This document shows positions 20,817-52,745 of a stretch of DNA of 64,000 bases, piece by piece. A model generated the notes under the pieces. The model was not told the origin of the DNA. It saw nothing but the letters and a program-made list of their open reading frames with translations, and ran no database searches. Each line of letters opens with the position of its first letter. Position 1 is the stretch's first letter. Source of the DNA: an uncultured Actinomycetota bacterium (lineage in GTDB: Bacteria; Actinomycetota; Thermoleophilia; RBG-16-64-13); the NCBI GenBank assembly GCA_963796315.1, contig CAWCLH010000020.1, positions 289,879-353,878 on the forward strand, written 5' to 3'. A program made the position numbers and the translations under genes.

Positions 20817-22284
20817 ATGACGTACCTCCGCTACCTCGCCCTCGGCGGGTTCAAGAGCTTCCGCGACTGGAGCCTGCTGGAACTGTCGCCGGCGGTCAAC
20901 GTGATCGTGGGCGGCAACGGCACGGGCAAGAGCACGTTGGTGGAGGCGCTCCTCTGGTGCCTGGGGGAGGAGGACCTGGCGGCCCTGCGCGCCCGGGGAG
21001 CGGACGACCTGCTCTATCGCCCGCCGGCTCGGCCGGCCCAGCGCGATCAGGAGATCGCCCGGCAATCCCTGTTCACGCACGGCGCGGAGGAACGCAGGGC
21101 GGCCCAGGAGGCGACTTGGGCCGCGGAAGCCGCTGGGGTGGAGGAAGCCCGGGTCTACCTGGTGCTGGGGGACGAGAGCGAGCCTGGAGGGGACGCCCCC
21201 GCGGATGAGGAGGCGGACGGGTGTTGTTGCCGGGACACCTCGGCTTCCCGCACCGACCTGCCCCCGGGGAGTCGCCACCGTCGGTCGCACGATCCGGCGG
21301 GACGGCGAGGGAACGCGTCTGCTCGACGGCGAGCCTGCCTCCGAAGAGGCGGTGGCCCAGGCACTTCGACCGTACGGGTTCGACCGCTCGCTGGTGTCGG
21401 TGGTCCGCCAAGGGGAGCTCGAGCGGTTCTTGGTCGCCGGTCCGGCCCTCCGTGCCCGTATCCTGGCCGAATCCGCGGGGATCGAGCTGCGGAGCGAGAG
21501 CCGTCCGCGCTCCGGCCACCCCGGCGATGGGGCGGCGACCGATCGGGAGCGCCTGGTCCGCGCCTGGCTGCGGGAGGACGGGGTGGACCCCGGCCCCGTC
21601 GGCGGCGCGGAGGCGCTGCTGGCGTTGTTGGGCCTCAGTCCTGCGGATGCCGATGCCGGCGGGTCCGGCCGTGCCGAGTCGGAGACGGTGCGCGGGCAGT
21701 TGACGGAGGCGCAGGCTCGGGTCGAGGACCGGTTCCGGCGGTTCTTCCAGCTCTTGGTGCCTGGGGGCGACGTGGCCCTGCCTCTCGAGCTGCCGGAGGA
21801 GCTGGACCGCGCCACCCTCGACGTCCGCGTGGCCTTCCCCTCCGGCGATTGGGAGCCGCTGGAAGGACTCTCCGGCGGCCAGCGCGCGCTGGCCGCCTTC
21901 TCCCTGGGGTTGGCCTTCTTCCTGGAGGCGCCCTCCCGGCTCCTGATCCTGGACGAGGTGGAGCCGGCGCTGGACGAGTCCAACCTCAAGCGCTTCAACG
22001 AGGTGCTCCACGAGGTGGCCCAGAGCCGCCAGGTGATCGTGGTCAGCCACCAGCGGCGCACCAAGGACGTGGGCGATGTGGTCTTCGGCGTGGACCACGG
22101 GGGCTTCGGCGCCTCCACGCTGCACTTCCGTTTCGAACCCGCCACCAAGAAGCTGCTGGTCTTCGGACGCGTGCGCGGCAACTGGCTCGAGCGGACGGCG
22201 GCATTGGGCGGTGAACCGGGGGACGTCTTCGACGCCGGGGCGGCCTCGGCGGAGCCGGGCCCGAATGGCGGCTCCTGTTGCTGA
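20817..22284 (+). CDS. Arm-less SMC-like ABC ATPase A (both head lobes, no coiled coil or hinge), about 488 aa; one apparent frameshift at about 21220
   Basis: N lobe: MTYLRYLALGGFKSF, Walker A VIVGGNGTGKST, VGRTIRRDGEGTRLLDGE, Q-loop VVRQGE (ORFs 20817.. and 21205..22284). C lobe: LSGGQRALAAFSL, LLILDEVEPALDESNLKRF, QVIVVSHQ. Confidence 0.8.
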
Positions 22285-23536
22285 GCATCCAGCGCCTCGT
22301 CCTCCGCGACTTCAAGAGCTTCGCCGGCACCCAGGAGGTGGAGTTCGCGCCGGGGGTCTCCGTGATCGTGGGGCGCAACGCGTCCGGCAAGAGCAACCTG
22401 GTGGACGCGCTTCGTTGGGTCTTCGGCGAAGACCATCTGTCGTCGCTGCGGGTGAGGTCGGCGGGGGAGCTGGTGCACCGGGGGGAGCGAGACGGGCTCG
22501 ACCTGCCGGAGACGGTTGCGAGGTCACGGCGGTCCTCCGCGACGCCGCCGGACAGGACGTGCCGGTCACCCGCCGCCTGCAAGGGGGAGGGGAGTCGCTG
22601 CTCGTGGCCGGGGAGGCGCTCGACCGGCCCGCGTTCCTGCAGCGGCTGCGCCGGCTGGGCCTCACCGCGCCCCTGGCCACCGTCATCCGGCAGGGCGACG
22701 TCGGGCGGGCGCTGTGGCTGCATCCCCGCGAACGGACGGAGCTCTTCCTGGAGCATCTGGGGGAGGGACCGCCGCCTCGGTCGCCCGCGTCGCCCGGTCC
22801 GCGGTCCGCGGGACTCGAACGACGGTTGGAGCGGGAGCGATCGACCCTGCTCGCCTCGCTCGCCGCCCAGAGCCGGGCCCGGTCCGCCGACTCGTCCCCG
22901 GCATTCCGGGCGATGCTCGCCGGCCTGCACCTGCCGGCTCCCGCGGCGACGCCACCCTCGCCGGGGCAGCAGAGAGAGGTGGTGGCCGGTCTCCTCGCCC
23001 TGGAGGATCCGTCATGGAAGGCTGCCACCGGCGTTGGGCCGGACCGGGCGGCCGCGTTGGACCGGGTACACCGCCGGATCGAAGGCCACTTCCGGTCGTA
23101 CCTGGCCACGCTCGTCCCGGGCGCGTCCGCGTCGCTGCCGGTGGTGCCACCCTCGGCCGCGGGGGAACTGCCGGGGATCGGGCTGGCCGTCACGTTCCCC
23201 CGGCGTCCGGCGGTGCACGTGGACGCCCTCTCCGGGGGGCAGCAGGTGACCGTCGGACTGTGCCTGGCTCTGGCTGCGTTTCGAGAGATGCCCTCGCCCG
23301 CCCTGGTCTTGGACGAGGTGGAGCCGGCCCTGGACGACACCATGATCCGCCGGGTCTCGGACCTGCTCCACGAGGTGGGGGCCGAGCGGCAGGTGATCGC
23401 GGTGAGCCACCAACGGCTGATGCGGTACACGGCCGACACCGTCTATCAGTTGGAGCGGGCCCCGGGAGGGGGCAGCCGGGTGGTCTTCCGGTACGATCCG
23501 CGGGCGCTGCGAGGACCTTCGGCTCCGCCGGGCTGA
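22278..23536 (+). CDS. Arm-less SMC-like ABC ATPase B, about 419 aa; one apparent frameshift at about 22512
   Basis: TTG 22278 overlaps the stop of gene A by 7 nt. MLSIQRLVLRDFKSF, Walker A VIVGRNASGKSN, VTRRLQGGGESLLVAGE, VIRQGD. C lobe in ORF 22076..23536: LSGGQQVTVGLCL, ALVLDEVEPALDDTMIRR, QVIAVSHQ. Confidence 0.8.
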
Positions 23537-27884: not shown

Positions 27885-28177
27885 CGAAGGCGTTCGTCCG
27901 CCGGGCTCTTCGCGAGGAGCGCGGCCTGGGTCAGTCCCTCGTCCCAGAGGCGTGTGTCGGCTCTGCCTTGAATACTCGGCCTGCGCGATGATGGGTCAGA
28001 CACGCACCTGAGGGTATACTAATCAGCGGCGATGGAGTCCGCCCAACCGCGGTTAGCCGCTGATGACCCCTCCTTGATGGACTGAGCGGACAGCAAGGAA
28101 GGGGGCTGAGGTCGTGCAGGGCCGAAGGTGGCGGGACTCTCGATGCGGCCCCACTCGAATCAGCTACGGCTCGACTC

Positions 28178-29829
28178 TTGTCTCTGGTGTCGGAGTACGA
28201 ACTGGTCCCGCTGCTCCGTCCGGTGGAGGCGGCGCGCGGTGCCCTGAACGACCCCGCCCTGCTTACCGTCGCGGTCGTCGGGCGTTTCAAGGCAGGGAAG
28301 AGCTCCTTTCTGAACCACCTGATCGGCCGCCCGCTCCTTCCCGCGGACGTACTTCCCGCCACGGCCGTCGTCACGCACCTGCGGTACGGGGCCGCCGATC
28401 GAGCCTTGGTCCGGTACTTGGACGGCCGCTGCTCCCCGGTGAAGCTTGACGCGGTGGCCGACTTCGTCACCGAGCGCCTGAATCCCGACAACGCTAAGGG
28501 CGTGGGCGCGGTCGAGCTCGAACTGGATTCGCTCGCGCCGTACGAGGGTCTGCGCTTGGTCGACACCCCCGGGCTCGGCAGCGTCTTCACGCACAACACG
28601 CGCACATCCATGGACTGGCTCCCGGAAGTGGGAGTCGCGCTGGTCGCGATGAGCGTCGACCCGCCCTTGGGCGAGGGGGACCTCCGGTTGTTGGCCGACG
28701 TGGCCGCGTTTACGCCCGAGCTCGTCGTCCTTCTCACCAAGGTGACCTGGTCGCGCGGTCCGAGCTCGAGCGGGTGGTGGGATTCGTACAGGACCAGATC
28801 GAGGAGCGTCTGGCGTGTCGACCGACGGTGCTCCCCTTCGCCATCCTTCCCGGCTACGAGGAGGAACGCCGGCGGGTCGGCGACTACCTCGCCCGTCTCG
28901 TGACCTCCGGGGAGGGGACAGGCCGAGCGATCGTGATCCACAAGCTGAACCACGTCCTCGAGGAGGCGGAACAGTACCTGCGAGTGAGCCTGGCGGCTGC
29001 GTTGGCCACCGACGAGGCGCGCCGCGGGCTGGCCGCGCTCGTGGCACAGGAACGCACCCACGTGGAGCAGGGGCGGCGCGAGCTTCGGGTCCTGGGCGGC
29101 GACCTGCGGATCCGGGCCCGGGACGAGGCCACTCGGCTGTTCCGCGAGCGGCGCGGCGAGATCGCACATGGTCTCGAGGAGCAGTTCGATGCGCACGCCC
29201 CCAGCTGGCGCGGGCACCTTCGAAAGACCATGATCGCCTATCGACGCTGGCTCGAGGAGGCACTGGAGCCGGTGCTCCTCCGAGTGTCGCACGAGAACGA
29301 GGACGCCCTTTCCGAGTACGTGGTCGAGGCAGCCCGGAGCTTCACCCGACTGGTGGCCGCGTTCCAGGACCGCATGGCGGCCGACCTGGAGGCGGCGCTG
29401 GGCCTGCGCCTTCCGAGGACCGAGTTCGAGCCGTTGGTCGACGAGCCGGAACGGCCCGACATCCGGACGGACCGTCCCCTGGACACGTCCATCGAGCTCC
29501 TCTGGTTCCTGGTCCCCATGCCGGTCTTTCGAGCGTTGGTGCTGCACCGCTTTCGCGGACAGCTCCCCTGGGAGACGGAGAAGAACCTCGTGCGCCTGGC
29601 CGGGCAGTGGTCGGACGCCGTGGGCCAGTCGATCGAGCAGATGACCCAGCAGGCCGAGATATTCATCGCCGAGGAGCTGGCGTTGGTCGAGCGATTGCTC
29701 GCGGAGCCCGAAGGGAGCCGCGCGCGGCTGGAGGCGGCACTGGGCGAGCTTGGGACCCTGCGGGAGACTCTCGCAGAGCACGAAGCGGCGCGCCTCCTCA
29801 GGCGGGATACCCCTCGATCGGCCCCGTGA
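28178..29829 (+). CDS. Dynamin-family (bacterial dynamin-like) GTPase, about 550 aa; one apparent frameshift at about 28753
   Basis: G1 VVGRFKAGKSSFLNHL, G2 region PATAV, G3 LVDTPGLGS. G4 TKVD is restored across the break (LLTKV/DLVARSELERVVGFV). A long helical stalk follows in ORF 28774..29829. The start is TTG 28178 or GTG 28187. Confidence 0.75.
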
Positions 29830-34420: not shown

Positions 34421-34492
34421 GGGCGCTTAGCTCAGGGGGAGAGCGCTTCCTTGACGCGGAAGAGGCCACAGGTTCAAATCCTGTAGCGCCCA
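34421..34492 (+). tRNA. tRNA-Val (anticodon GAC)
   Basis: Acceptor GGGCGCT/AGCGCCC, D arm GCTC-AGGGGGA-GAGC, anticodon stem CTTCC/GGAAG with loop TTGACGC, T arm ACAGG-TTCAAAT-CCTGT, discriminator A. Confidence 0.9.
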
Positions 34493-34504
34493 CCTTGGTG
34501 TACG

Positions 34505-35230: not shown

Positions 35231-35725
35231 TCAGTCGTCGATCGCCTCGACACCGAGTCGCTTGAGTTCTTCAAGGTGGTCCTTCATGGCCTTGAGCACT
35301 TCGGGGGTGTGCCCCTGCCAGTCCGTGCACTCGCCCGTCACCCGCAGAGGCTCCCGAGAGCGGTATGACTTCGTCGGATTACCGGGGAACATCTTGTCCG
35401 TCAGGTTGGGGTCATCCACGATCGGGCCCGTCGGTTCCACGAGGTAGATTCTGCCGGGACCTTCGCCGAGAGCCAGCTCCGCCCCCCAGACGGCCGCGTC
35501 CAGAGTGCCGGTCAGGTAGACCCAGGTTGCCTGCTTCCTCTTCCCATAGTTGGAGCGATAGCCAGGCTCGATCAGGTCTCCCAGCTTCAGGTCGGCCCGT
35601 GTGCCATGGTAGAACCGCTGCGGACTCGGATCCTCGGTAGCTGCCACCGACTTGCTCCTCTCATGCTGCGCGGCTCCGCTGCCGCGCGCCGTAGCCGGTC
35701 CCTGAGGCGTCGAGACCACACCCAT
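35231..35725 (-). CDS. arr: NAD+--rifampin ADP-ribosyltransferase (Arr family)
   Basis: ATG 35725 after AGGAG. FYHGTRADLKLGDLI, AAVWGAELA, IYLVEPTGPIVDDPNLTDKMFPGNPTKSYRSREPLRVTG and DWQGH closely parallel the M. smegmatis Arr sequence as recalled. Confidence 0.85.
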   Translation of the reverse strand: MGVVSTPQGPATARGSGAAQHERSKSVAATEDPSPQRFYHGTRADLKLGDLIEPGYRSNYGKRKQATWVYLTGTLDAAVWGAELALGEGPGRIYLVEPTGPIVDDPNLTDKMFPGNPTKSYRSREPLRVTGECTDWQGHTPEVLKAMKDHLEELKRLGVEAIDD

Positions 35726-35839
35726 TTCGACTCCTGTGCCCGTACTTTTCGAAGTGCGGCGTTCATTATGCGGCACGACCCGGGGCTTGCCGCAAGCCCC
35801 CACCTGGGCTGTACACTAAGACTGGAGGGTTCTTAACGG

Positions 35840-36998: not shown

Positions 36999-38061
36999 TC
37001 AGATCGCAGTGCCTTCGACGACGCTCCAAGGCATGCCCTTCAGCGGCGTGATCTGCGTGAGCGCGAAGCCGGACTGGTTGAGCAACTGCTCGAATTCGCC
37101 CGCCGTACGCTCACGGCCGCCCACCACCGCCAGCATCTCGAGATCAGCCTGTCTGACAAGCCGCTTGAAAGCGGGCGCCGAGGGGTCATCTCCCTCGGGA
37201 AGGACCATCTCTACCACGAGCACGCGGGCCCCCTCGTCCATCACCGCTCGACAGCGGGCCAGGATGCGCCGCGCGGTAGGGTCGTCCCAGTCGTGCAGGA
37301 TCCAGGAGAGGAAGTAGGCATCGCCCCCCGGGGGGACGGCCTCCCGAAAGTCGCCGGCGATGACGTCGCAGCGCTCAGCAAGGCCGGCCTCCCGCAGTGG
37401 CTCACGGGCGCCCTCCACCACGCCGGGCAGATCGAACAGGATTCCGCGAAGACGAGGGTATGCGGTCAGCAGGCCCGACAGCAGACCGCCTCGACCGCCG
37501 CCGACATCAACCACGCAGCGAAAGCCGCTGAGGTCGACCGAGGCAACGACCGCCTGATCGCGGACGGCTCCGATCCGGGCCATGCTTTCTTCGAAGGAGG
37601 CTGCCGTCTCCGGGTGAGCGGCCAGATAGTCCCAGAAGCGACACCCGTGGGCTGCTACGAGCCCGGGCTCGCCGGTTTGCAGCGTGTGGGTGAGGTGTCC
37701 GTAGGCGTACCAGCGCCACGGGTCGGTAGAGAGGGTCGACTGCGTAGCGGCGTAGCGAGCCCGGGACGTCGGTGCGCAGAAGATCGCCCAGAGCGGTCAA
37801 ACAGTAGCGGCCATCGTCGCCGAGCGTGAACAGGCCGGTAGCAAGGGTGGCGTCAAGAAGACGGGCCAGCGCACCCGCGTCGGCGCCGACAGAAGCGGCA
37901 AGCGCCGCACTCGTGGCCGGACCATCTGCCAGGGCGTCGGCGACGCCGAGGCGGGCGAATGCGCCGATCGCGGCGCTCACCTGGTAGCCGCCGATGAGCT
38001 CGGCCAAGCGACGGTGGGAGGCGGAGCTCTGCTCGGAAGGTGGGGTCGCTCCTTCTGTCAT
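36999..38061 (-). CDS. Class I SAM-dependent O-methyltransferase (dimerisation domain plus Methyltransf_2 type); one apparent frameshift near 37755-37770
   Basis: The N-terminal winged-helix part is in ORF 37507..38061. The catalytic part is in ORF 36999..37583 and its upstream extension (WRWYAYGHLTHTLQTGEP, VVDVGGGRGGLL, FDLPGVV, GDFRE, YFLSWILHDW). Confidence 0.8.
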
Positions 38062-38123: not shown

Positions 38124-38924
38124 CTACACCGCGCCTGCCAGCGCCTGCCTCATCTCCTCAACCGACCGGTACCGGGCGGCGGGGTCCTTCTGCAGTGCCC
38201 GCACGACGATCTTGTCGATCCACCCGGGCACGCCGGCCCGGCGCCGGCTCGGCGGGGCGGGCGGCATGTTCACCTGCTTCTGGGCCACCTCGGGGGCCGA
38301 GGTGCCGTCGAACGGGACCGCTCCGGTCACCAGCTCGTACAGGATCACTCCCAGCGCGTAGACGTCGGACTGAGGGATCACCAGGTCGCTCTGGATCTGC
38401 TCCGGGCTGAGGTAGTATGCCGTCGCCGCTGCTCGGCTTTCCCCCTCGGGCAAGATGTCGGCGATCGCCATGCCCCACCCCACCACCTTCACTTCGTCGG
38501 ACTCGGCCGAGACCAGCAGGTTGGAGGTCTTCAGGTTGCCGTGAGAGACGCCCTGGGACTCGATGGCGGCCACCGCCGCGGCGGCCTGCGCGACGTAACG
38601 GACCGCGAGCGACGGCTCCAGCGGCCCTCCCGCCTGGATCATGCTCTCGAGGTCGATGCCCGGGACGTAGTCGCGCACCACGTAGAAGTCGTCCCCGTCG
38701 CGCCCCCACGCGCTCGGGATGATCAAGCCCGGGTGCCCGGCCGCGGTCTTGAGTCGCGCGGACATGCCCGCGGCAAGCTCCGGCGACACGTCCCGCAGCA
38801 CCCTCAGCACCACCACCTTCCCGCCGGGCCCGGTCGCTTGGTATGTCTCCGCCGACCCGGCCACGTCCAGCCGCCGTCCCAGCCGGTAGCCACCGACCAG
38901 CACCGGCTCCGTCACTCCACTCAT
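38124..38924 (-). CDS. Stand-alone Ser/Thr-kinase-fold protein lacking catalytic residues (predicted pseudokinase)
   Basis: ORF 38124..38954; probable ATG 38924 after GAGGAGGATGGGG. Hanks-type fold (YRLGRRLD..., YLSPEQ, SDVYALGVILYELVTG, RY.S..E). VAIK is replaced by VVLR, HRDLKPSN by HGNLKTSN, and DFG by GWG. Confidence 0.75.
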   Translation of the reverse strand: MSGVTEPVLVGGYRLGRRLDVAGSAETYQATGPGGKVVVLRVLRDVSPELAAGMSARLKTAAGHPGLIIPSAWGRDGDDFYVVRDYVPGIDLESMIQAGGPLEPSLAVRYVAQAAAAVAAIESQGVSHGNLKTSNLLVSAESDEVKVVGWGMAIADILPEGESRAAATAYYLSPEQIQSDLVIPQSDVYALGVILYELVTGAVPFDGTSAPEVAQKQVNMPPAPPSRRRAGVPGWIDKIVVRALQKDPAARYRSVEEMRQALAGAV

Positions 38925-39097
38925 CCGGACCCCATCCTCCTCGTTGACCTGCACGGCGTCGCAAGAGACGCCGACTCTGTCGCACTTCGCAGTGTAATGG
39001 AAAGATGTTGGGGATGTCAGGCAGCACGGCCTGCAGTATGCGTCAAGCGGGCGTCCTCGGCTTACGTCCCGGCCACGCTCATCCCGCTGGCAGAGGT

Positions 39098-39120
39098 GGC
39101 AGAAGTGCGAACTCCGACCG
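39098..39120 (+). repeat. 23-nt direct repeat, copy A (GGCAGAAGTGCGAACTCCGACCG)
   Basis: Shares 20/23 with copy B and 19/23 with copy C, same orientation; lies in a 387-nt non-coding gap. Confidence 0.8.
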
Positions 39121-39311
39121 CTCCGTAGTCCGTCATCACTGAAGGCAATGGCCCAGCAAAACGTGCTGTTTCTGGCTGGCTCGGTCGCGGTCTTCTTCCG
39201 AGGGACACACCCGCCGACCCAGATGGGGTCCGCATACGCCGGTCTCGACCTTCGACGGCGGGCCCGGGGAATGCGGCGGCCTGGAACGGCCGGTGCCGGC
39301 GGGTCTCCGAA

Positions 39312-39575
39312 CTAACAGGAAGATGGGGAATTCGACGCCTCAGCCGGTTTGATCCTGCGCCGCTGCAGCCACCAAAGTGTCACCACACACGCGACCGAGA
39401 ACGCAAGCGGAACCACAGCCATGAGAACGAAGCGAGCAGACACGGCCAACGAGAAGACGATCGCAGAGAAGACATAGATCAAGGCGAACACGAATACGCA
39501 TGCGGAGAGCGCTGAGAGGACCGCAAGGATCCACGAGGTGAGTCGCACGAGACCTATCCACCGGTGCCTGTCCAC
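39312..39575 (-). CDS. Hypothetical small membrane protein (about 87 aa, 2-3 TM)
   Basis: Within ORF 39312..39737; GTG 39575. WIGLVRLTSWILAVLSALSACVFVFALIYVFSAIVFSLAV...MAVVPLAFSVACVVTLWW. Confidence 0.4.
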   Translation of the reverse strand: MDRHRWIGLVRLTSWILAVLSALSACVFVFALIYVFSAIVFSLAVSARFVLMAVVPLAFSVACVVTLWWLQRRRIKPAEASNSPSSC

Positions 39576-39675
39576 GCTGAGGCTTCTACCCGCTCGCTGC
39601 CGGCTCGAAGTCCCGGCTCCTATGACTGCGCATTTCTGCCTACGACCCAGCTGCCGCGCGGCAGAGCGCTCTATT

Positions 39676-40203
39676 CTAGGGACCAGTGCCGACGGACAGG
39701 ACCTTCCAAGGCGAATCCGAGCGCTGGCGCCCAACATAGACGAAGAAGTGTCGCTCGCCGGGCGGCTCTCCGATGTTGTTCGTCTTGAGCGAGGTGTACG
39801 TCACCTCGAACTGCAGCTGCTCCGGCCATTCGGTGCGGTCGTACGACTGGAGCCCCGGACTCTTCGTCCCGCCGCTGATGACGAGGTCGTCGATGCCTCC
39901 CTCTCGCTCTCGGTTGAGGACGGTATGGGGCGCTCGCAACCGCTGCTGCTCGGGAGGGGCGCTCAAGTAGTACTCCACATCAAGGCTTCCTGAGGCGAAG
40001 TACTCGCGGACCACCTCTCTCGCAGGTAGGCTATCGAGTCGCTGTGCCTCCGCCCTGGGAAGACTGGTCACGGTGGAGGTGGAGACGGGACGCGCAGAGG
40101 CAGCCGTTGTGGAGACAGCGGAGTCCCCGGACCCGCATCCACCAAGGAAGAGTAAGGCGAGACCTGCGCAGAGAGCCAGCAAGAGAGCCGACCGCCAGCG
40201 CAT
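39676..40203 (-). CDS. Hypothetical lipoprotein
   Basis: ATG 40203 after GAGGAAG. Signal peptide with lipobox MRWRSALLLALCAGLALLFLGGC. No recognisable domain. Confidence 0.65.
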   Translation of the reverse strand: MRWRSALLLALCAGLALLFLGGCGSGDSAVSTTAASARPVSTSTVTSLPRAEAQRLDSLPAREVVREYFASGSLDVEYYLSAPPEQQRLRAPHTVLNREREGGIDDLVISGGTKSPGLQSYDRTEWPEQLQFEVTYTSLKTNNIGEPPGERHFFVYVGRQRSDSPWKVLSVGTGP

Positions 40204-40419
40204 CCCAGCTTCCTCGCTCCCGTGTATCAAGTCGACCGACTGGGGCCGGTCAGGTCGTTCGGTCATCAGTCGGTCTCCCTCCCCTTCAAGAACGCGGTCC
40301 CAGCACTCTATCGGGAACGGACCTCGAACGGTCAAGGAGGCTGTCAGGCCGGTCGGTCTCCGAGATCAGGGTCGAGCGTCAGGGGGAGGACCCAACGGGC
40401 CCAAGAATCGGCCGGCAAG

Positions 40420-40442
40420 GGCAGAAGTGCAAACTCCGTCCC
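40420..40442 (+). repeat. 23-nt direct repeat, copy B (GGCAGAAGTGCAAACTCCGTCCC)
   Basis: See copies A and C. Lies in the 463-nt gap between the divergent lipoprotein and ECF sigma genes. Confidence 0.8.
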
Positions 40443-40666
40443 GTCGCCGTCTCTGTTGTCATCGGTGGTAATACGGCTGCAAATACTGGTTGTTTGCCCC
40501 GGCCAAACGGATTCTTCTGAGACTCACCAAGCGTGTCTGGTGGTGCGCTCGGTCTCTTCTCACTGTGCGTCTCGCTGTTGGAGAGAGAGTCTCGCAGTCC
40601 GCACAAGCTGGCCGCCCACTCGAGCGTGTGTAGAGTAGGGAACGCAGACGGCGGTGAGGCGAACGG

Positions 40667-41203
40667 ATGACGATGTTGGTCGATTGGCACGCGCAAGCGG
40701 AGAGGGAGGACGTCGCCTCCCGTGCCGCTGCGCCGCGGTACGCATCCCCCGAGTCCCTCTTCCGCTCGGAGTATGCGTCGCTGGTCAAGGCACTGTCCCT
40801 GGGCGCGGGTCTAGAAGCGGCTGAGGATGCTGTTCAGGACGCCTTCGTCCGGCTCTACGTGGAGTGGGGCAGGATCGGCGCCTATGAGAATCCGGCGGCT
40901 TGGGTCCGCCGGGTGGCGATCCACCGACTGATCGACCGACGCCGGCGGCTTGGGTACCGAGCCCGGGCCCTACTCCGTCTCGGCCCTCCCGTTGTGTCCG
41001 TCGATCCGCCCCGGCCTGATCATCTCGACCTCTCCGCGGCCGTTCGTCTGCTCCCTCCCCGTCAGCGCGTGGCCGTGGCCCTCTTCTACGTCGCCGACCT
41101 GCCCGTCAGGGACGTCGCCGAGGCGATGGGCATCTCCGAAGGCGCGGTCAACCGGTATCTGCACGACGGGCGAGAGGCTCTGCGTCGGTTCCTGGAGGTG
41201 TGA
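40667..41203 (+). CDS. ECF-type RNA polymerase sigma factor
   Basis: 178-aa ORF. Region 2 (AEDAVQDAFVRLYVEW, NPAAWVRRVAIHRLIDRRR) and region 4 (LPPRQRVAVALFYVADLPVRDVAEAMGISEGAVNRYLHDGR). Confidence 0.85.
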   Translation: MTMLVDWHAQAEREDVASRAAAPRYASPESLFRSEYASLVKALSLGAGLEAAEDAVQDAFVRLYVEWGRIGAYENPAAWVRRVAIHRLIDRRRRLGYRARALLRLGPPVVSVDPPRPDHLDLSAAVRLLPPRQRVAVALFYVADLPVRDVAEAMGISEGAVNRYLHDGREALRRFLEV

Positions 41204-41204
41204 C

Positions 41205-42554
41205 ATGACCGACGACCAACAACTACGAGACGAACTGCAGCGCGCCGTCCCCAGAGTGGTGAATACCCCGGCCTGGTCAGAGATCGAGACCAGGGGCCGC
41301 CGAGCGCGCCGGCGGCGTCGCTCCGTTCTTGCCTTAGCGACGACTGTGGTGCTTCTTGCGGTCGGTGCGGGCGGCTACGCACTGTGGGACGCGCTTCGCC
41401 CGGCGACGACACTGCTCATCACCGATGAGATGCCAGCGGAAACAGCGGCCCGCCCAGCGAACGGGCCGCGGGCTGTCTACCTTGCTCCAAGCACGGGGGC
41501 TCAGCTGACGCCGGACGACCTCCGAGCCCACCCCGAAGTGATTGTCGTCCACGACCAGGCCGGCCTGGAAGCCGCGGCCCAGGGCCGGACCGCGATCTGG
41601 ATCGACAAGGCCTCGGTGGACCGGGCGGTCGACAAAGCTTCGGCGGGCACGGTGGACATGGACTGGCTCCGCACGCAGTACTTCGAGCGGCATGACCCGA
41701 TCGTCCTCGTCGGCTACGGGAACTCCCTCTACGCCTTTCGAGAGGTCCTGGAGATCTCCGGGATCAGGGGGCCGTACGTGGACTGGAAGGCTCATCCGCC
41801 TGCCCTCGGTTTCAGCACGGTGATGCTCCTTGAGGCCACCGACCAGGGAAGGAAGGCCTTCATGCAGTCCAGCGCGGGGCAGCCGACTGCCGGAGCCATC
41901 CTTGAGGTGACGGACCGCCTGCTGCGGGTACCCTCCGAGGGACCGGCCGCAAGCGCCACCGCCACGACAGCCGGGGGGACCCTCGATCCCGAGCGGTCGC
42001 AGTTGCTCAGCGACATCCAAGCGCTGATGTCACGGCTCGATCGCGGGGAACTCGTCATCGACTGGCCGCTAGCCGACGCCGCCGAGGGCGCGTACGGTCT
42101 CTTCAGCTCCTACCAGAGTGCATCACAAGCCCTCTATGCGCTTGGGCAGCAGGTCCTGCGGGGTGACGCCCACCTCGTCATCTACCTCAAGGACGGCGTG
42201 GACCAGGAGGCTGCCCGACAACTGGCGGAAGAGATCCGTTCCGCCTCGGGGGTCGTCTGGGTCAAGTACGTAAGCAAGGACGAGGCTCTCGCCCGCCTCA
42301 AGGAGGATCTGAAGGAGGACCATCCGGAGCTGTTAGCTCCCCTGGCCGCGAATCCGCTACCTGCGAGCATCGAGGCGTTCGTCCCGGACCTCACCGACCG
42401 GAAGCGCCTCGCCGAGTCGATGAGCGCGCGGGCGGAGGTGGACGAAGTGCGCTACCCAGAGGCCGGGTCCATCCAGACATTGCGAGAGGCCTTCCAGCAA
42501 CTGCAAGAGCGCGCCCGCCCTGCAGGCTCGACCAGTTCGACCTCGGCGCCATGA
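41205..42554 (+). CDS. Putative anti-sigma factor: short cytoplasmic N-terminus, one TM, large ectodomain ending in an FtsX-extracellular-domain-like module
   Basis: ATG 41205 lies 2 nt after the sigma gene stop, in the frame of ORF 40950..42554. TM SVLALATTVVLLAVGAGGYALW. The C-terminus VIYLKDGVDQEAARQLAEEIRSASGVVWVKYVSKDEALARLKEDLKEDHPELLAPLAANPLPASIEAFV...AEVDEVRY matches the FtsX ECD pattern. Confidence 0.7.
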   Translation: MTDDQQLRDELQRAVPRVVNTPAWSEIETRGRRARRRRRSVLALATTVVLLAVGAGGYALWDALRPATTLLITDEMPAETAARPANGPRAVYLAPSTGAQLTPDDLRAHPEVIVVHDQAGLEAAAQGRTAIWIDKASVDRAVDKASAGTVDMDWLRTQYFERHDPIVLVGYGNSLYAFREVLEISGIRGPYVDWKAHPPALGFSTVMLLEATDQGRKAFMQSSAGQPTAGAILEVTDRLLRVPSEGPAASATATTAGGTLDPERSQLLSDIQALMSRLDRGELVIDWPLADAAEGAYGLFSSYQSASQALYALGQQVLRGDAHLVIYLKDGVDQEAARQLAEEIRSASGVVWVKYVSKDEALARLKEDLKEDHPELLAPLAANPLPASIEAFVPDLTDRKRLAESMSARAEVDEVRYPEAGSIQTLREAFQQLQERARPAGSTSSTSAP

Positions 42555-42600
42555 CATAGGAGTGGGAGAGGGGGGGTCGCGCTCACGTCAGTTGCCCGAG

Positions 42601-42960
42601 TTAGGCTCGCTGCCGGGGACTGAATGGAGAGAAGTCGCTCGTGGGCAGAAGTGCAATCTCCGACTCGTCGGACGTGCGGAGGGGAAGCGTGCCGTTGGTG
42701 TAGACGACGACGGTCAGGTAGCCGAGACCGTGCGCGCGGTCCACGATGTCGTCGAGCGGTGCGACGTAGCCGATACCAGCCCGCGGATGAGGGCGGGGTC
42801 TTGCCGAGAAGGCGGTGACGAAAAGTACTTTAGACCGAACGCCGAGGCTGAGAGCACGCCCCGGCCTGGCGGGGGAGAGGCGGAGGATCATCGTTCCCGT
42901 GTGACACCGAACCCCCGGTCGAGGACTCGATCGGGACCATTCTGAGACCAACGTAGTCAC
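42601..42960 (-). pseudogene. Truncated gene remnant (possibly radical-SAM-like core fragment) ending in repeat copy C
   Basis: ORF 42601..42960. KVLFVTAFSA..., LDDIVDRAHGLGYLTVVVYTNGTLP is reminiscent of the radical-SAM GGEPLL ... TNGTLL region. There is no CxxxCxxC, and the N-terminus is overlapped by the upstream gene end. Confidence 0.3.
42644..42666 (+). repeat. 23-nt direct repeat, copy C (GGCAGAAGTGCAATCTCCGACTC)
   Basis: See copies A and B. Lies inside the 3' end of the minus-strand remnant ORF. Confidence 0.8.
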
Positions 42961-44546
42961 GAATCGCCCTCACCGCAACTCGAGTGGGACCGCCGGATGG
43001 ATGGCAACGCGCCCCGCCTGACGAGGTCCTGGCCCACCACCGCGACGGACACCACGGCGAGAGGGACCAACGGCACCGAGTAGCGCGGGATGAAGTGCGT
43101 GGCCAGCGCGTGGAACCAGAAGAACCCGACGCCCAACAGCGAGAAAGCCAGCCAGTCGGCTCGTCTGCGCCGGACGGCGAGGAGGGGGAGGGCGAGGAAG
43201 GTGACGAAGGCCAGGAAGTCGGCCGCCACGAGGAAGAGGTAGCGGGCACCGGATCGATCCAGGAATGGGAACGGCCACAGGCCTCTCCAGGCGAAGGGGA
43301 GCGTCGTGGCGAGATGCCGACCGGGGGCGGCCGCGATCAGGTCCTCCGCCTGCTTCTGCAATACCCGATCGGCCTCGCTCTTCGGGCGCCCGGCGGCGAT
43401 CATCTGTTCGCCCAGCCGATTGGAGGTGGCCAAAGCTTTGCCGAAGAAGCTGATGGCCCGCTCCACCTCGCCCGCCGCCACCGCTTGGGGCTCCCCTGGA
43501 GGGAAGCGCATCAGGCGCTCGTAGCGGCCGCCCTTCTCGAGGTCCTCCGGGCGAAAGCCGAGCACCGGCTCGAACAGGTGCGCCCGCAGAGGCACGGGAG
43601 CATAGACATAGAAAGCGCCCACGTACTCCTCCGCGGTCATCCGATCCTTGAGGGCGCGGGTGTAGAGGACCAGGCCCCCCCGCTGGGCGATGGCGAAGTC
43701 GCCGAAGCGGACGTAGTTGCGCGTCATCCAGGGGGTGACGGTGACGGCGAAAGCGACGGTGGCGACGGCCAGCAGCACCAGGGCCCGCCGGCGCGAGGCG
43801 AGCCCGAAGAGCACCAGGCTCGCCGCCAGGGCGAGGATCGCCACCGGGGCCACATAGAGCGCGGCCGCCTTGGTGAGAGCGACGGCGCCCAGCAGGACGC
43901 CGGCGAGCGCGGCGGACGGTAGCCGCCGGGTCTGCGCCAGCCGGACCATCGCCCCGCTCGCCAGCACGAGAGCGAGGCCGGCCGCCGTCTCGGTCAGCAG
44001 GTTCCCGGCGCTGGGCGTGAAGAACGCCCATGTGCCCACAACCGAGAGGGCGCCCACCAGGTGCGAGCGCGTGAGCAGCCAGGAGAGCCACCAGACCGCC
44101 AACAGGAGCCCGGCGACGTAGTAGAGGTTGATCGGGATGATCTGCCCGAGGTAGTGGGGGTCGGTCGAGAGCTCCTCCGTGGTGGCGGACGCGGGGATGT
44201 CGGTGAACCACGCCATGTAGGCGGCGGTGACCGCGATCGCCAGCGGTTCCCGCAGGTAGGACGGCGTGCGTCCGTCCTCGGAGAAGCGGCCGTCGGTCCA
44301 GAGGTGGAAGCTGAGGGCGGCGTTCTCTCGCCCGTCGGGGGAGAGCGGCTTGTCCTCCACCATGGTCGCCGTGACCCCAGTGAGCGCAACGATCAAGACC
44401 AGGACGCCGAGAAGCGGCAGCCGACGCCGCGATCCCTGCAGGCATCGGCGAAACCGGTCCTCCAGCGCTTCGCGCCGGGTGAGCGGCACTTCCATCGATG
44501 TTCGCCCCGAAAGAGCCATATCCGCGTCGTCCCCGAATGCCTGCAC
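42957..44546 (-). CDS. Polytopic membrane glycosyltransferase, GT39/ArnT (PMT_2)-like
   Basis: Intact 529-aa ORF with about 10 hydrophobic segments and an extended loop. The overall architecture resembles dolichyl/undecaprenyl-phosphate-sugar-dependent transferases. The family call rests on pattern recognition only. Confidence 0.5.
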   Translation of the reverse strand: MQAFGDDADMALSGRTSMEVPLTRREALEDRFRRCLQGSRRRLPLLGVLVLIVALTGVTATMVEDKPLSPDGRENAALSFHLWTDGRFSEDGRTPSYLREPLAIAVTAAYMAWFTDIPASATTEELSTDPHYLGQIIPINLYYVAGLLLAVWWLSWLLTRSHLVGALSVVGTWAFFTPSAGNLLTETAAGLALVLASGAMVRLAQTRRLPSAALAGVLLGAVALTKAAALYVAPVAILALAASLVLFGLASRRRALVLLAVATVAFAVTVTPWMTRNYVRFGDFAIAQRGGLVLYTRALKDRMTAEEYVGAFYVYAPVPLRAHLFEPVLGFRPEDLEKGGRYERLMRFPPGEPQAVAAGEVERAISFFGKALATSNRLGEQMIAAGRPKSEADRVLQKQAEDLIAAAPGRHLATTLPFAWRGLWPFPFLDRSGARYLFLVAADFLAFVTFLALPLLAVRRRRADWLAFSLLGVGFFWFHALATHFIPRYSVPLVPLAVVSVAVVGQDLVRRGALPSIRRSHSSCGEGDS

Positions 44547-44687: not shown

Positions 44688-46624
44688 ATGAACGTCTTTC
44701 TGCCCGATGGCTCCCCGTTGACCGTCCCGGAGGACGCGACCGTCAGGACCGTGGCCCAGACCATCGGGCCCGGGCTGGCCAAGGCCGCGATCGCCGGGAA
44801 GGTGGGTGACCGGGTGGTCGACCTGACGGCCCCGGTGCACGAAGGCGACCGGGTCGCCATCGTGACGCTGGCTACCCCGGAAGGCATCGATATCCTGCGG
44901 CACTCGTCGGCCCACGTCCTCGCGGAGGCGGCCACGCGGGCCTACCCGGGGACCAAGGTGGCCATCGGTCCGGCGATCAAGGACGGCTTCTACTACGACT
45001 TCGAGTTCCCCCAGCCCATCACCGAGGAGGACCTGGCCCGCATCGAGCAGGAGGCCAACCGGGCGATCAAGGCGCGGGAGCCGTTCGAGCGGCGCGAGGT
45101 CACCAGGGAGGAGGCGCTCGCGCTGTTCGCCGACGAGCCCTACAAGACGGAGATCATCGACGAGCTGCCCGAGGGCTCCATCATCAGCCTCTACCGCCAG
45201 GGCGACTTCCTCGACCTGTGCCGGGGCCCGCACCTGCCGGACACCGGGCGCATCCCGGCCTTCAAGGTGCTCTCCACCGCCGGCGCCTACTGGCGGGGCG
45301 ACGCCCAGCGGCCCATGCTCACCCGCATCTACGGCACCGCCTTCCCTTCGAAGAAGGACCTGGAGGACCATCTGGCCCGGCTGGAGATGGCCAAGCCAGC
45401 GCGACCACCGGAAGCTGGGCCGGGAGCTGGACCTCTTCAGCTTCCACGACGAGGGCCCGGGGTTCGTCTTCTTTCACGCCCGGGGCATGCGGGTGATCAA
45501 CGCCCTGCTGGACTACTGGCGGCGAGGAGCACCGCCGGGCGGGCTACGAGGAGATCAAGACGCCCATCATCCTCGATCGGGCGCTGTGGGAGCGCTCCGG
45601 CCATTGGGACAACTACAAAGACAACATGTACTTCACCCAGATCGACGACATGGACTTCGCGGTGAAGCCCATGAACTGCCCGGGCGGCATCCTGGTCTAC
45701 AAGTCCGAGCAGCACTCCTACCGGGACCTCCCCCTGCGCATGGCGGAGCTGGGCCTGGTCCACCGGCACGAGCTGAGCGGGGTGCTGCACGGCCTGATGC
45801 GGGTGCGCTCCTTCACCCAGGACGACGCCCACCTCTACTGCCTGCCCGGGCAGGTGGAGGACGAGGTGCTGGCCGTCATCGCCCTCACCCTGCGCATGTA
45901 CCGCACCTTCGGGTTCGAGAACGTCCACTTGGAGCTGTCCACCCGCCCCGAGAAATCCATCGGCACCGACGAGATGTGGGCCACCGCCGAAGGGGCCCTC
46001 ACCTCCGCTTTGGAGCGCAGCGGGCTGGAGTACACCCTCAACCCGGGCGACGGCGCCTTCTACGGCCCCAAGATCGACTTTCACATCGAGGACGTCATGG
46101 GCCGCACGTGGCAGTGCGCCACCTGCCAACTGGACTTCGCCATGCCCGAGCGCTTCGACATGGAGTACGTGGGCGAGGACAACCAGCGTCACCGCCCCGT
46201 CATGATCCACCGCACCGTGCTGGGGAGCATCGAGCGGTTCTTGGGCATCCTCATCGAGCACTACGGCGGCGCCTTCCCGACCTGGCTGGCCCCGGTGCAG
46301 GCGGTCGTCATCCCCGTGGCCGATCGGCACAACGAGTATGCCTGGGAGGCGCGAGAGGAGCTCTTCCGCGCCGGGCTGCGGGTCGAGGTCGACGCGCGGA
46401 CCGAATCCGTGGGGCGCAAGATCCGGGACAACGAGATGCTGAAGGTGCCGTTCATGCTGATCGTGGGCGACCGCGAGGTGGACGCCGGCAACGGTGTCGG
46501 TCCGCTCCCGCGCCGACGGCGACCTGGGCGGCTCGGAGCCGGCAGGAGGCGGTCACGCTCCTGCTCGAGGCGGCCGAGGTGCCCGGCGGCGACGTGGACC
46601 GCCGAGTCGACGCTGGACGGTTGA
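44688..46624 (+). CDS. thrS: Threonine--tRNA ligase; at least four apparent frameshifts (about 45396, 45522, 46490, 46535); 3' end uncertain
   Basis: TGS domain and editing domain ([10 protein letters not shown]) in ORF 44688... [13 protein letters not shown] is reached after the first shift. The class II core is in ORF 45626.. ([52 protein letters not shown]). The anticodon-binding domain follows (VVIPV...[12 protein letters not shown]). Confidence 0.9.
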
Positions 46625-50114: not shown

Positions 50115-52745
50115 ATGAAGGCCCCCCTTTCGTGGCTGCGCGAGTACGTGCCCATCGAGCTGGACCCCCTGGAGCTGGCCTCCCGGCTGGCCATGACGGG
50201 CACCGAGGTCGAGCGGGTGGACATGGTGGGCCTCTCGGACGAGGACGGTAACCTCACCCACTTCGTGGTGGGCAAGGTGCTCGAGCTGCGAACGGCACCC
50301 CAACGCCGACAAGCTCTCCGTCTGCCGGGTCGACGTGGGCGAACGGGAGCCCCGGACCATCGTGTGCGGCGCCCCCAACGTGGAGGCGGGACAGACCGTC
50401 CCGGTGGTGCTCCCCGGCGGCCGGTTCCCCGATGGGATGGTGATCAAGGAGGCGAAGCTGCGCGGGATAGGGTCGTCCGGCATGATCATGTCCGCGGCGG
50501 AGCTGGGCTACGAGGCCAAGAGCGAGGGCATCCTCGTGCTTCCCCCCGAATGGCAGGCGGGCGAGGCGCTGATGGGGCACCTGCCCGTGAGCGAGGCGGT
50601 GCTGGAGGTCGAGGTCACGCCCAACCGGCCGGACTGCCTCTCCATCCAAGGGCTGGCCCGCGAGGTGGCGGCGGTCACCCTGGCCCCCTTCGACGAACGC
50701 TCCACCTTCAGCTTCCCCATGGCCGCGCGGCGGGCGGAGGAGGACATCGCGGTGGAGGTGCTGGACCCGGACCTCTGCCCGCGCTACGCCGCCCGCGTCA
50801 TCCGGGGAGTGCGTATCGCCGAGTCCCCGCCCTGGTTGAAGGCGCGCATCGCCCACGCGGGCATGCGGCCGGTCAACAACGTGGTGGACGTCACCAACTA
50901 CGTGATGTGGGCGTTGGGCCAGCCGCTCCACGCCTTCGATCTGGACACGCGTGGCCGGGAGGCGGATCATCGTCCGCCGGGCTCGGCCGGGCGAACCCAT
51001 CACCACCCTGGACGGCACCGCCCGCACCCTGACCGAGGACATGCTGGTCATCGCGGACGCCGAGAAGCCCTCCGTCATCGCCGGCATCATGGGCAGCGTC
51101 GACAGCGAGGTCACCGACCGGACCACCGACCTCCTGCTGGAGGCCGCCACCTTCTTCGGGCCGTCCATCATGCGCACGTCGGCCGCTCTGGGCCTGCGCA
51201 GCGAGTCGTCCACCCGGTTCGAGAAAGGGCTCGATCAGAACCTGGCGCTCCCGGCGCTGGACATGGCCTGCGCCCTGCTGACCGAGATCTGCGGCGGTAC
51301 CGTCTCCACGGGGACGGTCGACGTCCTCGTCGCCGAGGTGGGGCCGTGGCAGGTGTCGCTGCGTCCGGAGCGCGTGGAGGCGGTCCTCGGGGAAGCCGAT
51401 CCCCGTCGGCGAGATACGCGACATCCTGACGCGGTTGGGGTGCGGGGTGGCCCTCGCCTCCTGGGCCGGCGACGACGCAGGCCTGGAGGCCGACGAGGAG
51501 CCCGCCGCCGGTGTTCCCGAGGCCCTGCTGGTCACGGTGCCCACCTTCCGGCAGGACCTGGTGCGCGAGATCGACCTGGTGGAGGAGGTGGCCCGCATCC
51601 ACGGGGTCGACCGGCTCCGACCCACCATGCCCGCCCGGCGGGGCCGGGGCGGCCTGACCCCCGAACAGCGGAGGATCCGGCAGGTGGAGGATCTGCTGCA
51701 GAGCGCGGGCCTCTCGGAAGTCATCACCTACGCCTTCACCGACCCGGCCTGGCTGCCGCTGCTGCGCCTGCCCGCCGACGACGAGCGTCTGCGGCCGGTC
51801 CCGCTGGCCAACCCGCTCAGCAGCGACCAATCCGTGATGCGCACCATGCTCCTGCCCGGCCTGCTGGCCGCCGCCGCCCACAACCGCGCCCTGCGCGAGG
51901 ACCGCGTGCACCTCTTCGAGTCGGGCAAGACCTTCCACTCCCGGCTCCCGCTGAGCGAGATGGCACGGGCCGAGGGACGCGAGGCGGCGGCCGTGCTGCC
52001 GGCGGAGGTGCGCCGGGTCGGCTTCCTGCTCGCAGGGCGAGTGGACCGAGGAATCGTGGAACCGCACCGCCGTCCCCACCGACTTCTTCCTGGCCAAGGG
52101 CCTGGTGGAGCGGGTGCTGGGGGCGCTCCGGGTCCAGGCCTCCTTCGGCCCGGCGACGGAGCCCTTCCTCCATCCGGGGAAGAGCGCCGCGGTGGCCTGC
52201 CCGGCCGGTCCGCTCGGGCTGGGTGGGCGAGGTGCACCCGCTGGTCCTCAAGGCCTTCGACCTGCCCGCCGGCGCGCTGGCGGCCGAGCTCGATCTGGAC
52301 GTCCTGGTGGCCCAGGCCGGTGCCGTCGCCCTGTTCGAGGACCTGCTGACCTATCCGGTCGTCGAGCAGGACCTGGCCCTGGTCCTGGCGCGAGACGTCC
52401 CGGCGGAGCGGGTGGTCGCCACCGTGCGCGAGACGGCCGGACCGTTGCTGCACGACGTCCGCGTGTTCGATGTGTACGAGGGCAGCCAGGTGGGCGAAGG
52501 CCGGCGCAGCCTGGCCCTTCGCCTGGTGTTCCGCTCCGCGGAGCGCACCTTGAGCGAGGCCGAGGTCAACGAGGTGCGCGAGCGGCTGCTGGCCACGCCT
52601 GCGCGACGCGATGGGGGCCGAGCTCGCGCGGCTCGATCGTCTCTCCGCCGCCCGGCCTGCGGCGACGAGACCGGGACGGAGGGCGGCCGTGCCGTCAGAC
52701 CGGGGCGAGGCGGCCGTTTGCGTCGGTGCACTCCGGACTGTATAG
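50115..52745 (+). CDS. pheT: Phenylalanine--tRNA ligase beta subunit; at least six apparent frameshifts; 3' end uncertain
   Basis: MKAPLSWLREYV, the tRNA-binding domain, B3/4 (NNVVDVTNYVMWALGQPLHAFD), B5 (VTVPTFRQDLVREIDLVEEVARIHG), the core and FDX-ACB (VFDVYEGSQVGEGRRSLALRLVFRS) are spread over ORFs 50115.., 50335.., 50951.., 51435.., 52105... Confidence 0.9.

Follow-up and report, generated by a model that had tools for sequence, protein, structure and literature searches.

Three direct repeats and the genes between them

The window, that is the whole stretch of 64,000 nucleotides analysed here, belongs to contig CAWCLH010000020.1 (positions 289,879 to 353,878) of an uncultured Actinomycetota bacterium, and our subject is a short repeat that stands there in three same-direction copies, A, B, and C, around two small gene modules. 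The copies lie in a 10-kb accessory stretch that extends from tRNA-Val (34421-34494) to thrS and carries a rifampin ADP-ribosyltransferase (Arr), a GNAT protein, a frameshifted O-methyltransferase, and a pseudokinase. Housekeeping genes (lexA, zwf, recN, pheST, and arg genes) are found on either side of this stretch. The features of the locus are as follows:

39097..39124 (core 39098-39116), plus strand: repeat copy A in the extent of the 28-nt family, in the 357-nt gap between the small membrane open reading frame (ORF) and the pseudokinase
40419..40446 (core 40420-40438), plus strand: repeat copy B, in the divergent gap between the lipoprotein and the extracytoplasmic function (ECF) sigma factor, 64 nt left of the block shared with contig L037
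42643..42670 (core 42644-42662), plus strand: repeat copy C, in the convergent gap after the anti-sigma factor, abutting the truncation point of the radical-SAM gene
40443..42643, plus strand: module 1 (B-C interval, 2201 nt), ECF sigma factor and anti-sigma factor
40667-41203, plus strand: ECF sigma factor (Pfam/NCBIfam)
41205-42554, plus strand: anti-sigma factor with a C-terminal FtsX_ECD domain (Pfam/NCBIfam)
40507..41445, plus strand: block of 939 nt, 92% identical to L037 3251-4188, comprising a 160-nt leader, the sigma gene, and the first ~80 anti-sigma codons
39121..40419, minus strand: module 2 (A-B interval, 1299 nt), lipoprotein and small membrane ORF
39676-40335 (probable start 40203), minus strand: lipoprotein with the lipobox LFLGGC
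39312-39737, minus strand: small membrane ORF of module 2
42601-42960, minus strand: remnant ORF holding the radical-SAM fragments
42664..42756, minus strand: radical-SAM pseudogene, distal fragment, LDDIVDRAHGLGYLTVVVYTNGTLPLRTS, profile positions 93-123 of 298, 32 bits
42771..42857, minus strand: radical-SAM pseudogene, N-terminal fragment, FGLKYF..PALIRGLV, profile positions 6-35, in a different frame
38124..38954, minus strand: pseudokinase downstream of copy A, consisting of the kinase domain only, with VAIK changed to VVLR, HRD to HGN, and DFG to GWG
42957..44546, minus strand: large membrane protein, the last gene with orthologues elsewhere (59-67% amino acid identity)

The 19-mer GGCAGAAGTGCRAWCTCCG occurs on the plus strand with starts at 39098 (A), 40420 (B), and 42644 (C). 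Allowing up to three mismatches on both strands there are exactly three matches in the 64 kb, compared to an expectation of 0.08 from 100 shuffles, none of which gave three matches, and a scan of the window at up to four mismatches yielded no further copy. All three are inside 3.6 kb, with none in the remaining 60 kb. Compared as 23-mers, the copies are identical at 20 (A-B), 19 (A-C), and 20 (B-C) of 23 positions, and the opening 11 nucleotides are invariant. These values agree with the 19-20 identical positions and the identical first 11 nucleotides reported in the initial annotation of this DNA, whose coordinates and sequences for the three copies and whose gene content between the repeats (Pfam and NCBIfam) are reproduced as well. 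A repeat search widens the family to 28 nucleotides at 79-89% identity (39097-39124, 40419-40446, and 42643-42670). The flanks of the copies cannot be aligned to each other, and pairwise local alignments of them are no better than those of shuffles. Each copy is found in a non-coding gap of 330-400 nucleotides between gene modules, but the gaps are of different types: A is located between tandem minus-strand genes, B in a divergent, and C in a convergent gap. The repeat is short, sharply bounded, strictly local, direct, and not a product of chance.

It is very unlikely that the copies belong to a dispersed repeat of the kind of repetitive extragenic palindromes (REP) or miniature inverted-repeat transposable elements (MITE), or that they are an artefact of the assembly. 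In addition to its restriction to 3.6 kb of the window, the motif has no copy in 11 related or neighbouring loci. Exact-pattern scans gave nine matches in species-representative genomes, 27 in JGI metagenomes, and one in IMG/VR, which are scattered and have unrelated flanks except for that in the locus L032 described below; the database matches are single chance matches. With copy B and its flanks as query, BLAST found one sub-significant partial match in plasmids (E 0.9) and nothing in phages. Neither a palindrome nor an inverted-repeat partner of the motif is present in the window, and both strands fold no better than shuffles (z-scores +0.1 to +1.2). The indel errors of the assembly, e.g. 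the frameshifts in ThrRS, PheT, and Lon, would speak for an artefact, but a 19-nucleotide repeat with substitutions is too short to either cause or result from a misassembly.

Copy C and the radical-SAM pseudogene

Searched exhaustively against proteins, the remnant ORF 42601-42960 matched radical-SAM proteins. This family is well conserved, its members comprise about 292-305 residues, and 809 matches were obtained in a second search. A family profile of 102 members and 298 positions matches the window at only two places, 42664-42756 and 42771-42857, and both matches are partial. Therefore, the radical-SAM gene is a pseudogene. Between the two fragments (42757-42775) about 55 codons including the CxxxCxxC motif have been deleted, with a CTGG microhomology and a change of frame, and the pseudogene stops after ...TNGTLPLRTS. 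The nearest genes, in L039 and L040, are 88-90% identical to it at the DNA level over 42757-42665 and unrelated beyond. Homology to radical-SAM genes is lost at 42664-42670 while copy C covers 42643-42670, so that the breakpoint is located within a few bases of the repeat. Here, the 809 homologues read RTSADTVFVSVDG and then continue for about 180 more residues, and none of them contains the peptide SEFALLP, which the minus strand of the motif encodes. Because the family is devoid of the motif, the motif is not the 3' tail of the radical-SAM gene. The initial annotation had regarded the copies as the 3' tail of the gene that is still attached to C. This has to be given up, given that the attached ORF is a mid-gene fragment (residues ~93-123 of ~300) and that nothing is reconstituted at the repeat. 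The 89 nucleotides beyond C do not match any part of the radical-SAM gene.

L039 (6023-7200) is the contig of the nearest radical-SAM gene, which is itself frameshifted. A few kb upstream it also encodes a phage-type integrase, which is truncated, and a fragment of sigma-70 region 4. The contig does not contain a copy of the motif.

Copies A and B as further relics of radical-SAM genes were rejected, as the profile scores 0.3 bits at A, ranking 16th of the non-overlapping tile loci, and finds nothing at B. One radical-SAM homologue has a weak tblastn match over A (E 3.5), and aligning the gaps as DNA with two radical-SAM genes gave nothing better than shuffles, bar one case (p=0.05) with one reference only. 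The core can also be read as the junction of a 23-nucleotide tandem duplication of the codons for RTSADTVF, to which 16 of 20 positions fit, a post hoc reading with p of the order of 0.03.

Coding and regulatory readings of the motif

Any reading of the motif as a former coding sequence depends on frames. Several conserved genes in the window are split across overlapping frames, namely ThrRS (44688-46624), PheT (50197-52349), Lon (2790-5061), an amine oxidase (1-2788), the O-methyltransferase (36999-38061), and RecN (20905-23249). The assembly seems to contain many indel errors, or else the genome many pseudogenes, and reading-frame arguments in this window thus need caution.

On the minus strand the motif encodes S/T-E-F/I-A-L-L-P in frame (a), which at C is continuous with the radical-SAM frame, G/S-R-S/R-S/L-H-F-C-P/H in frame (b), and G-V/D-R/C-T-S-A in frame (c). 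The first peptide had correctly been read in the initial annotation, and its frame runs for another 5 (A), 26 (B), and 14 (C) codons before a stop is reached. Of the D-rich stretch that should precede it, there is a clear example at B (DDNRDGDG) and a weak one at C (SDE), but none at A. The intact parent gene ending in ...SEFALLP that had been postulated as source does not exist in the window, and the radical-SAM family, as said, does not contain the peptide. The differences between A and B in frame (a) are mostly synonymous (TTC/TTT and CCA/CCC, and past a 3-nt gap CTG/TTG, CCA/CCG, and GCG/GCC), which hints at a possible coding origin.

Frame (b) leads to a different gene. It reads GRSSHFCHLCQR in A and GRSLHFCPCRP in B, where a stop follows 10 codons on, and that of A resembles the C-terminal zinc finger of Fpg/MutM (PF06827). 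The locus L032 encodes a genuine Fpg with H2TH and zf-FPG_IleRS domains and contains an identical 19-mer, which is translated there as GGRSSHFCPACQ. With MutM from T. thermophilus, which was chosen independently of the motif, A and B are the two best tblastn matches in the window (E 0.18 and 0.40), and the pattern [HFYW][FYW]C..CQ is found only in A and L032 among about 928,000 translated residues. The frame (b) peptide GRSSHFCHLCQ of copy A corresponds to ..AGRGTHFCPTCQ of MutM. However, the complete finger has the form C-x2-C-x16-C-x2-C after the H2TH domain, and the similarity here is restricted to 11-12 residues, with the first cysteine pair and the rest of the gene absent. Neither Pfam nor PDB searches with A or B recovered Fpg. 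When the first half of the finger was used as a profile, the sequence preceding A and B did not rise above background, and even the opposite strand of B scored higher. There is also no body of an fpg or nei gene in the window. The tail of an Fpg/Nei protein (GRSSHFCxxCQ) as source of the motif is therefore a lead only, read from short peptides. It is the more concrete lead because the motif would then be the true 3' end of a conserved gene.

Based on these similarities the copies could be inert debris of one coding sequence, with homologous gene ends surviving by chance in three gaps and no recombination system of their own, either of the Fpg/Nei zinc finger (G-R-S-S/L-H-F-C-P-x-C-Q) or of the ...SEFALLP tail. 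The Fpg-like frame in A and B, the shared 19-mer of L032, the MutM matches, the rarity of the finger pattern, and the synonymous differences in frame (a) are in favour of such an origin. However, matches of 11-12 residues are not significant with respect to a large database, the PDB, Pfam, and half-finger profile searches were all negative, the fpg/nei body is missing from the window, and the two frames tell conflicting stories. In addition, neutral decay would not leave a 19-mer at 17-18 of 19 identical positions within random flanks. We thus regard debris as unlikely.

Alternatively, the motif might be regulatory in cis. A local DNA-binding protein would use it as an operator or upstream activating site at the promoters of the pseudokinase and the lipoprotein, and C would be an orphan of rearrangement. 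The sharp conservation boundaries and local distribution of the motif would be expected for such a site. On the minus strand A and B are located 77 and 84 nucleotides, respectively, upstream of the -35-like hexamer of the next gene, the candidates being CTGACA-18-TACACT for A and TTGACC...TAGAGT for B, and the flanks of both copies hold GCCTGACA at a similar distance. The common 8-mer is, however, not significant (flank alignment p ~0.1), and a contiguous conserved sequence of 19-28 nucleotides with an invariant 11-mer and without dyad or half-sites is unusual for an operator. Copy C does not have a downstream gene on its strand and is located 89 nucleotides from the convergent stop. A regulatory site would also leave the coincidence of C with the breakpoint of the pseudogene unexplained, and it is improbable that the motif is one.

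The clustering of the copies near the sigma gene, with B 225 nucleotides upstream of it, and GCRAAC-like -35 sequences on the plus strand could indicate a promoter that is recognised by the ECF sigma factor itself, which would then autoregulate its gene and a small local regulon. But a constant -10 element is missing, with CGT following AAC/ATC at 13, 18, or 7 and 14 nucleotides in the three copies, and in neither orientation do the copies consistently face genes. A further comparison is that with L037, a contig of another organism with 61% GC, of which 14.8 kb were scanned for the motif. The block of 92% identity in L037 comprises the sigma gene, an almost invariant 160-nucleotide leader, and the start of the anti-sigma gene, and outside this block L037 has nothing in common with the window. 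There is no motif copy within its 14.8 kb, and B is situated 64 nucleotides outside the shared block. Because the L037 block is without a copy and B is outside of it, the motif is not the promoter of the sigma factor; this explanation was rejected as highly improbable. The extracytoplasmic part of the anti-sigma factor, FtsX_ECD here, is entirely different in L037. Next to the 92% identical block, this suggests a recent transfer or domain swapping of the sensing half.

Junctions, modules, and known systems

The copies behave as junction markers rather than as a dispersed or regulatory repeat, and in this part the interpretation of the initial annotation is supported. The A-B interval has a GC content of 63.8%, compared to 68.8% for the window, and falls into the lowest 5% of all 1.3-kb windows. 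Behind the gene of the large membrane protein (42957-44546), the orthologous loci carry a GT2, a methyltransferase, and a membrane gene, none of which is found at this place in the window. Synteny is thus broken at 42957, and the accessory stretch is a rearranged one. The closest relative locus, L046 (59-3126), has two tandem paralogues of the membrane protein before the GT2, methyltransferase, and membrane genes, whereas the window has a single copy. The available orthologue loci are distant and do not have a common context on either side. The location of C at the breakpoint of the pseudogene, the atypical GC content of the A-B interval, the position of B outside the L037 block, and the broken synteny at 42957 all point to the copies as seams. 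The sharp edges of the 19-28-mer within shuffle-like flanks argue for a joining at a specific site, given that neutrally decaying duplicates would lose their similarity evenly.

Some other features of the neighbourhood can be noted here. The rifampin ADP-ribosyltransferase (35231-35803, minus strand; Arr-ms, E 1.8e-47) is encoded in a segment of low GC content (62.7%) right after tRNA-Val. A tRNA-Val island was rejected since the 3' end of the tRNA is not repeated and an integrase is missing. Immediately upstream of copy A, TFCWAIAFSDDGLRSG (39130-39175, minus strand) is encoded in the frame that leads on into the pseudokinase. This stretch (CWAIAFSDDG) resembles the WD40 signature VxAVAFSPDGxxLASG, and the frame has about 125 open codons, none of them a start codon; its PDB matches were to designed WD40 proteins, none of them significant per repeat, and it is a lead only. 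Further away, the ORF behind a fluoride riboswitch (28019-28079, plus strand; 44.9 bits) is not an obvious crcB or other fluoride channel gene but encodes a dynamin-family GTPase domain (28067-28903).

The best explanation, which we hold tentatively, is that the copies are core sites similar to attachment (att) sites that were left by successive site-specific insertion of small modules, the recombinase being encoded elsewhere. A site-specific recombinase from outside the window would have joined separate pieces of DNA at the core sites, possibly through circular intermediates. In this way two modules, the lipoprotein with the membrane protein (1.3 kb) and the ECF sigma with the anti-sigma factor (2.2 kb), would have been inserted in turn, in an order that we can only infer, at one site in the already decaying accessory region between tRNA-Val and thrS. 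Every insertion would add one core copy in the same direction, so that two modules end up with three copies. C, being outermost, would be the junction with resident DNA, and the radical-SAM gene would have been cut there or have eroded later up to the site. Being direct, the repeats would permit re-excision of either or both modules, provided that the sites are still active. That same-orientation repeats bound both ends of each module is what such a process should produce. Of the repeated integration at the 3' end of a gene that had been proposed in the initial annotation, the junction-marker behaviour is retained, while the replacement 3' ends are not, and neither an intact target nor a recombinase was found in the window.

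There are several points that weigh against insertion at att-like sites. About 50 ORFs were tested over the 64-kb window and none of them encodes an integrase, transposase, or resolvase; the absence of a recombinase had also been stated in the initial annotation. None of the intact conserved genes, tRNAs, or tmRNAs in the window ends in the repeat, and at or near the copies there is neither a tRNA, a tmRNA, nor any Rfam match (up to E 10), nor a tRNA-like fragment. The radical-SAM family does not contain the motif, as judged by the family profile and the 809 homologues. The missing 3' part of the radical-SAM gene was not found by the family profile past copy A or elsewhere in the window, and a simple insertion into this gene therefore fails to explain the layout. 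Positions 12 and 14 of the core vary between the copies, and its dyad symmetry is weak, at best 5 of 8 arm positions by inspection. Moreover, the modules are far smaller than usual islands, and the sharing with L037 covers part of module 1 and not the unit from repeat to repeat.

Several known systems show similar arrangements. Integron attC sites are imperfect palindromes of 57-141 nucleotides that fold. As in integron arrays, modules of one or two genes are separated here by a recurring site, with no recombinase inside the modules. However, the motif is only 19-28 nucleotides long, non-palindromic, and without a fold, intI and attI are missing, and one module is inverted with respect to the other. 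An integron cassette array was rejected, as an inverted-repeat partner, a fold, and an integrase are all absent from the window. The pdif modules of Acinetobacter plasmids and the IMEX are small elements that do not have their own recombinase, are bounded by short conserved sites, and are moved by host recombinases. Their dif-like sites comprise 28 nucleotides, with two inverted 11-nucleotide arms around a 6-nucleotide spacer, and alternate in orientation in pdif modules. The small recombinase-free modules between short conserved sites are the same here, but the motif does not have such symmetry and all copies are direct.

The nearest precedent is found in Dehalococcoides, where tandem ssrA-specific genomic islands are bounded by 20-bp direct repeats. 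Some of them are without an integration module, and they have been interpreted as cis-mobilizable elements that are formed by accretion and depend on a recombinase encoded at another place (PMC3146451). Accretion of ICESt1 and cis-mobilizable elements (CIME) in Streptococcus thermophilus was reportedly described by Pavlovic et al. in 2004, which is cited in PMC3146451. The locus shares with both examples that same-direction repeats of about 20 bp bound successive modules in a region of broken synteny, and that some modules do not have an integrase. In those systems, however, the repeat corresponds to the 3' end of a target that is intact and essential (tmRNA or fda), most islands carry an integration module next to attL, and presence and absence are documented between strains. 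In the 64 kb analysed here, neither an intact target nor an integrase was found, the modules have only 1.3 and 2.2 kb, and the outer copy borders on a fragment from the middle of a radical-SAM pseudogene.

If the copies were a regulatory site or inert debris, the locus would be an ordinary decaying accessory region. At the other extreme, the motif could be the active site of a module-exchange system with a recombinase acting in trans in this uncultured high-GC bacterium, which bears SLH proteins. Its non-palindromic site of ~20-28 nucleotides would accrete and excise modules of one or two genes, including a sigma/anti-sigma pair. In function this would resemble integron cassettes or pdif modules, with sites of another type. 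This we consider a long shot. If insertion at att-like core sites is true, very small modules, including a complete sigma/anti-sigma pair, would have been stacked at one site without a linked integrase. This would have happened in a lineage without any described system of that kind, and the repeat would provide a sequence tag for finding more modules in the genome.

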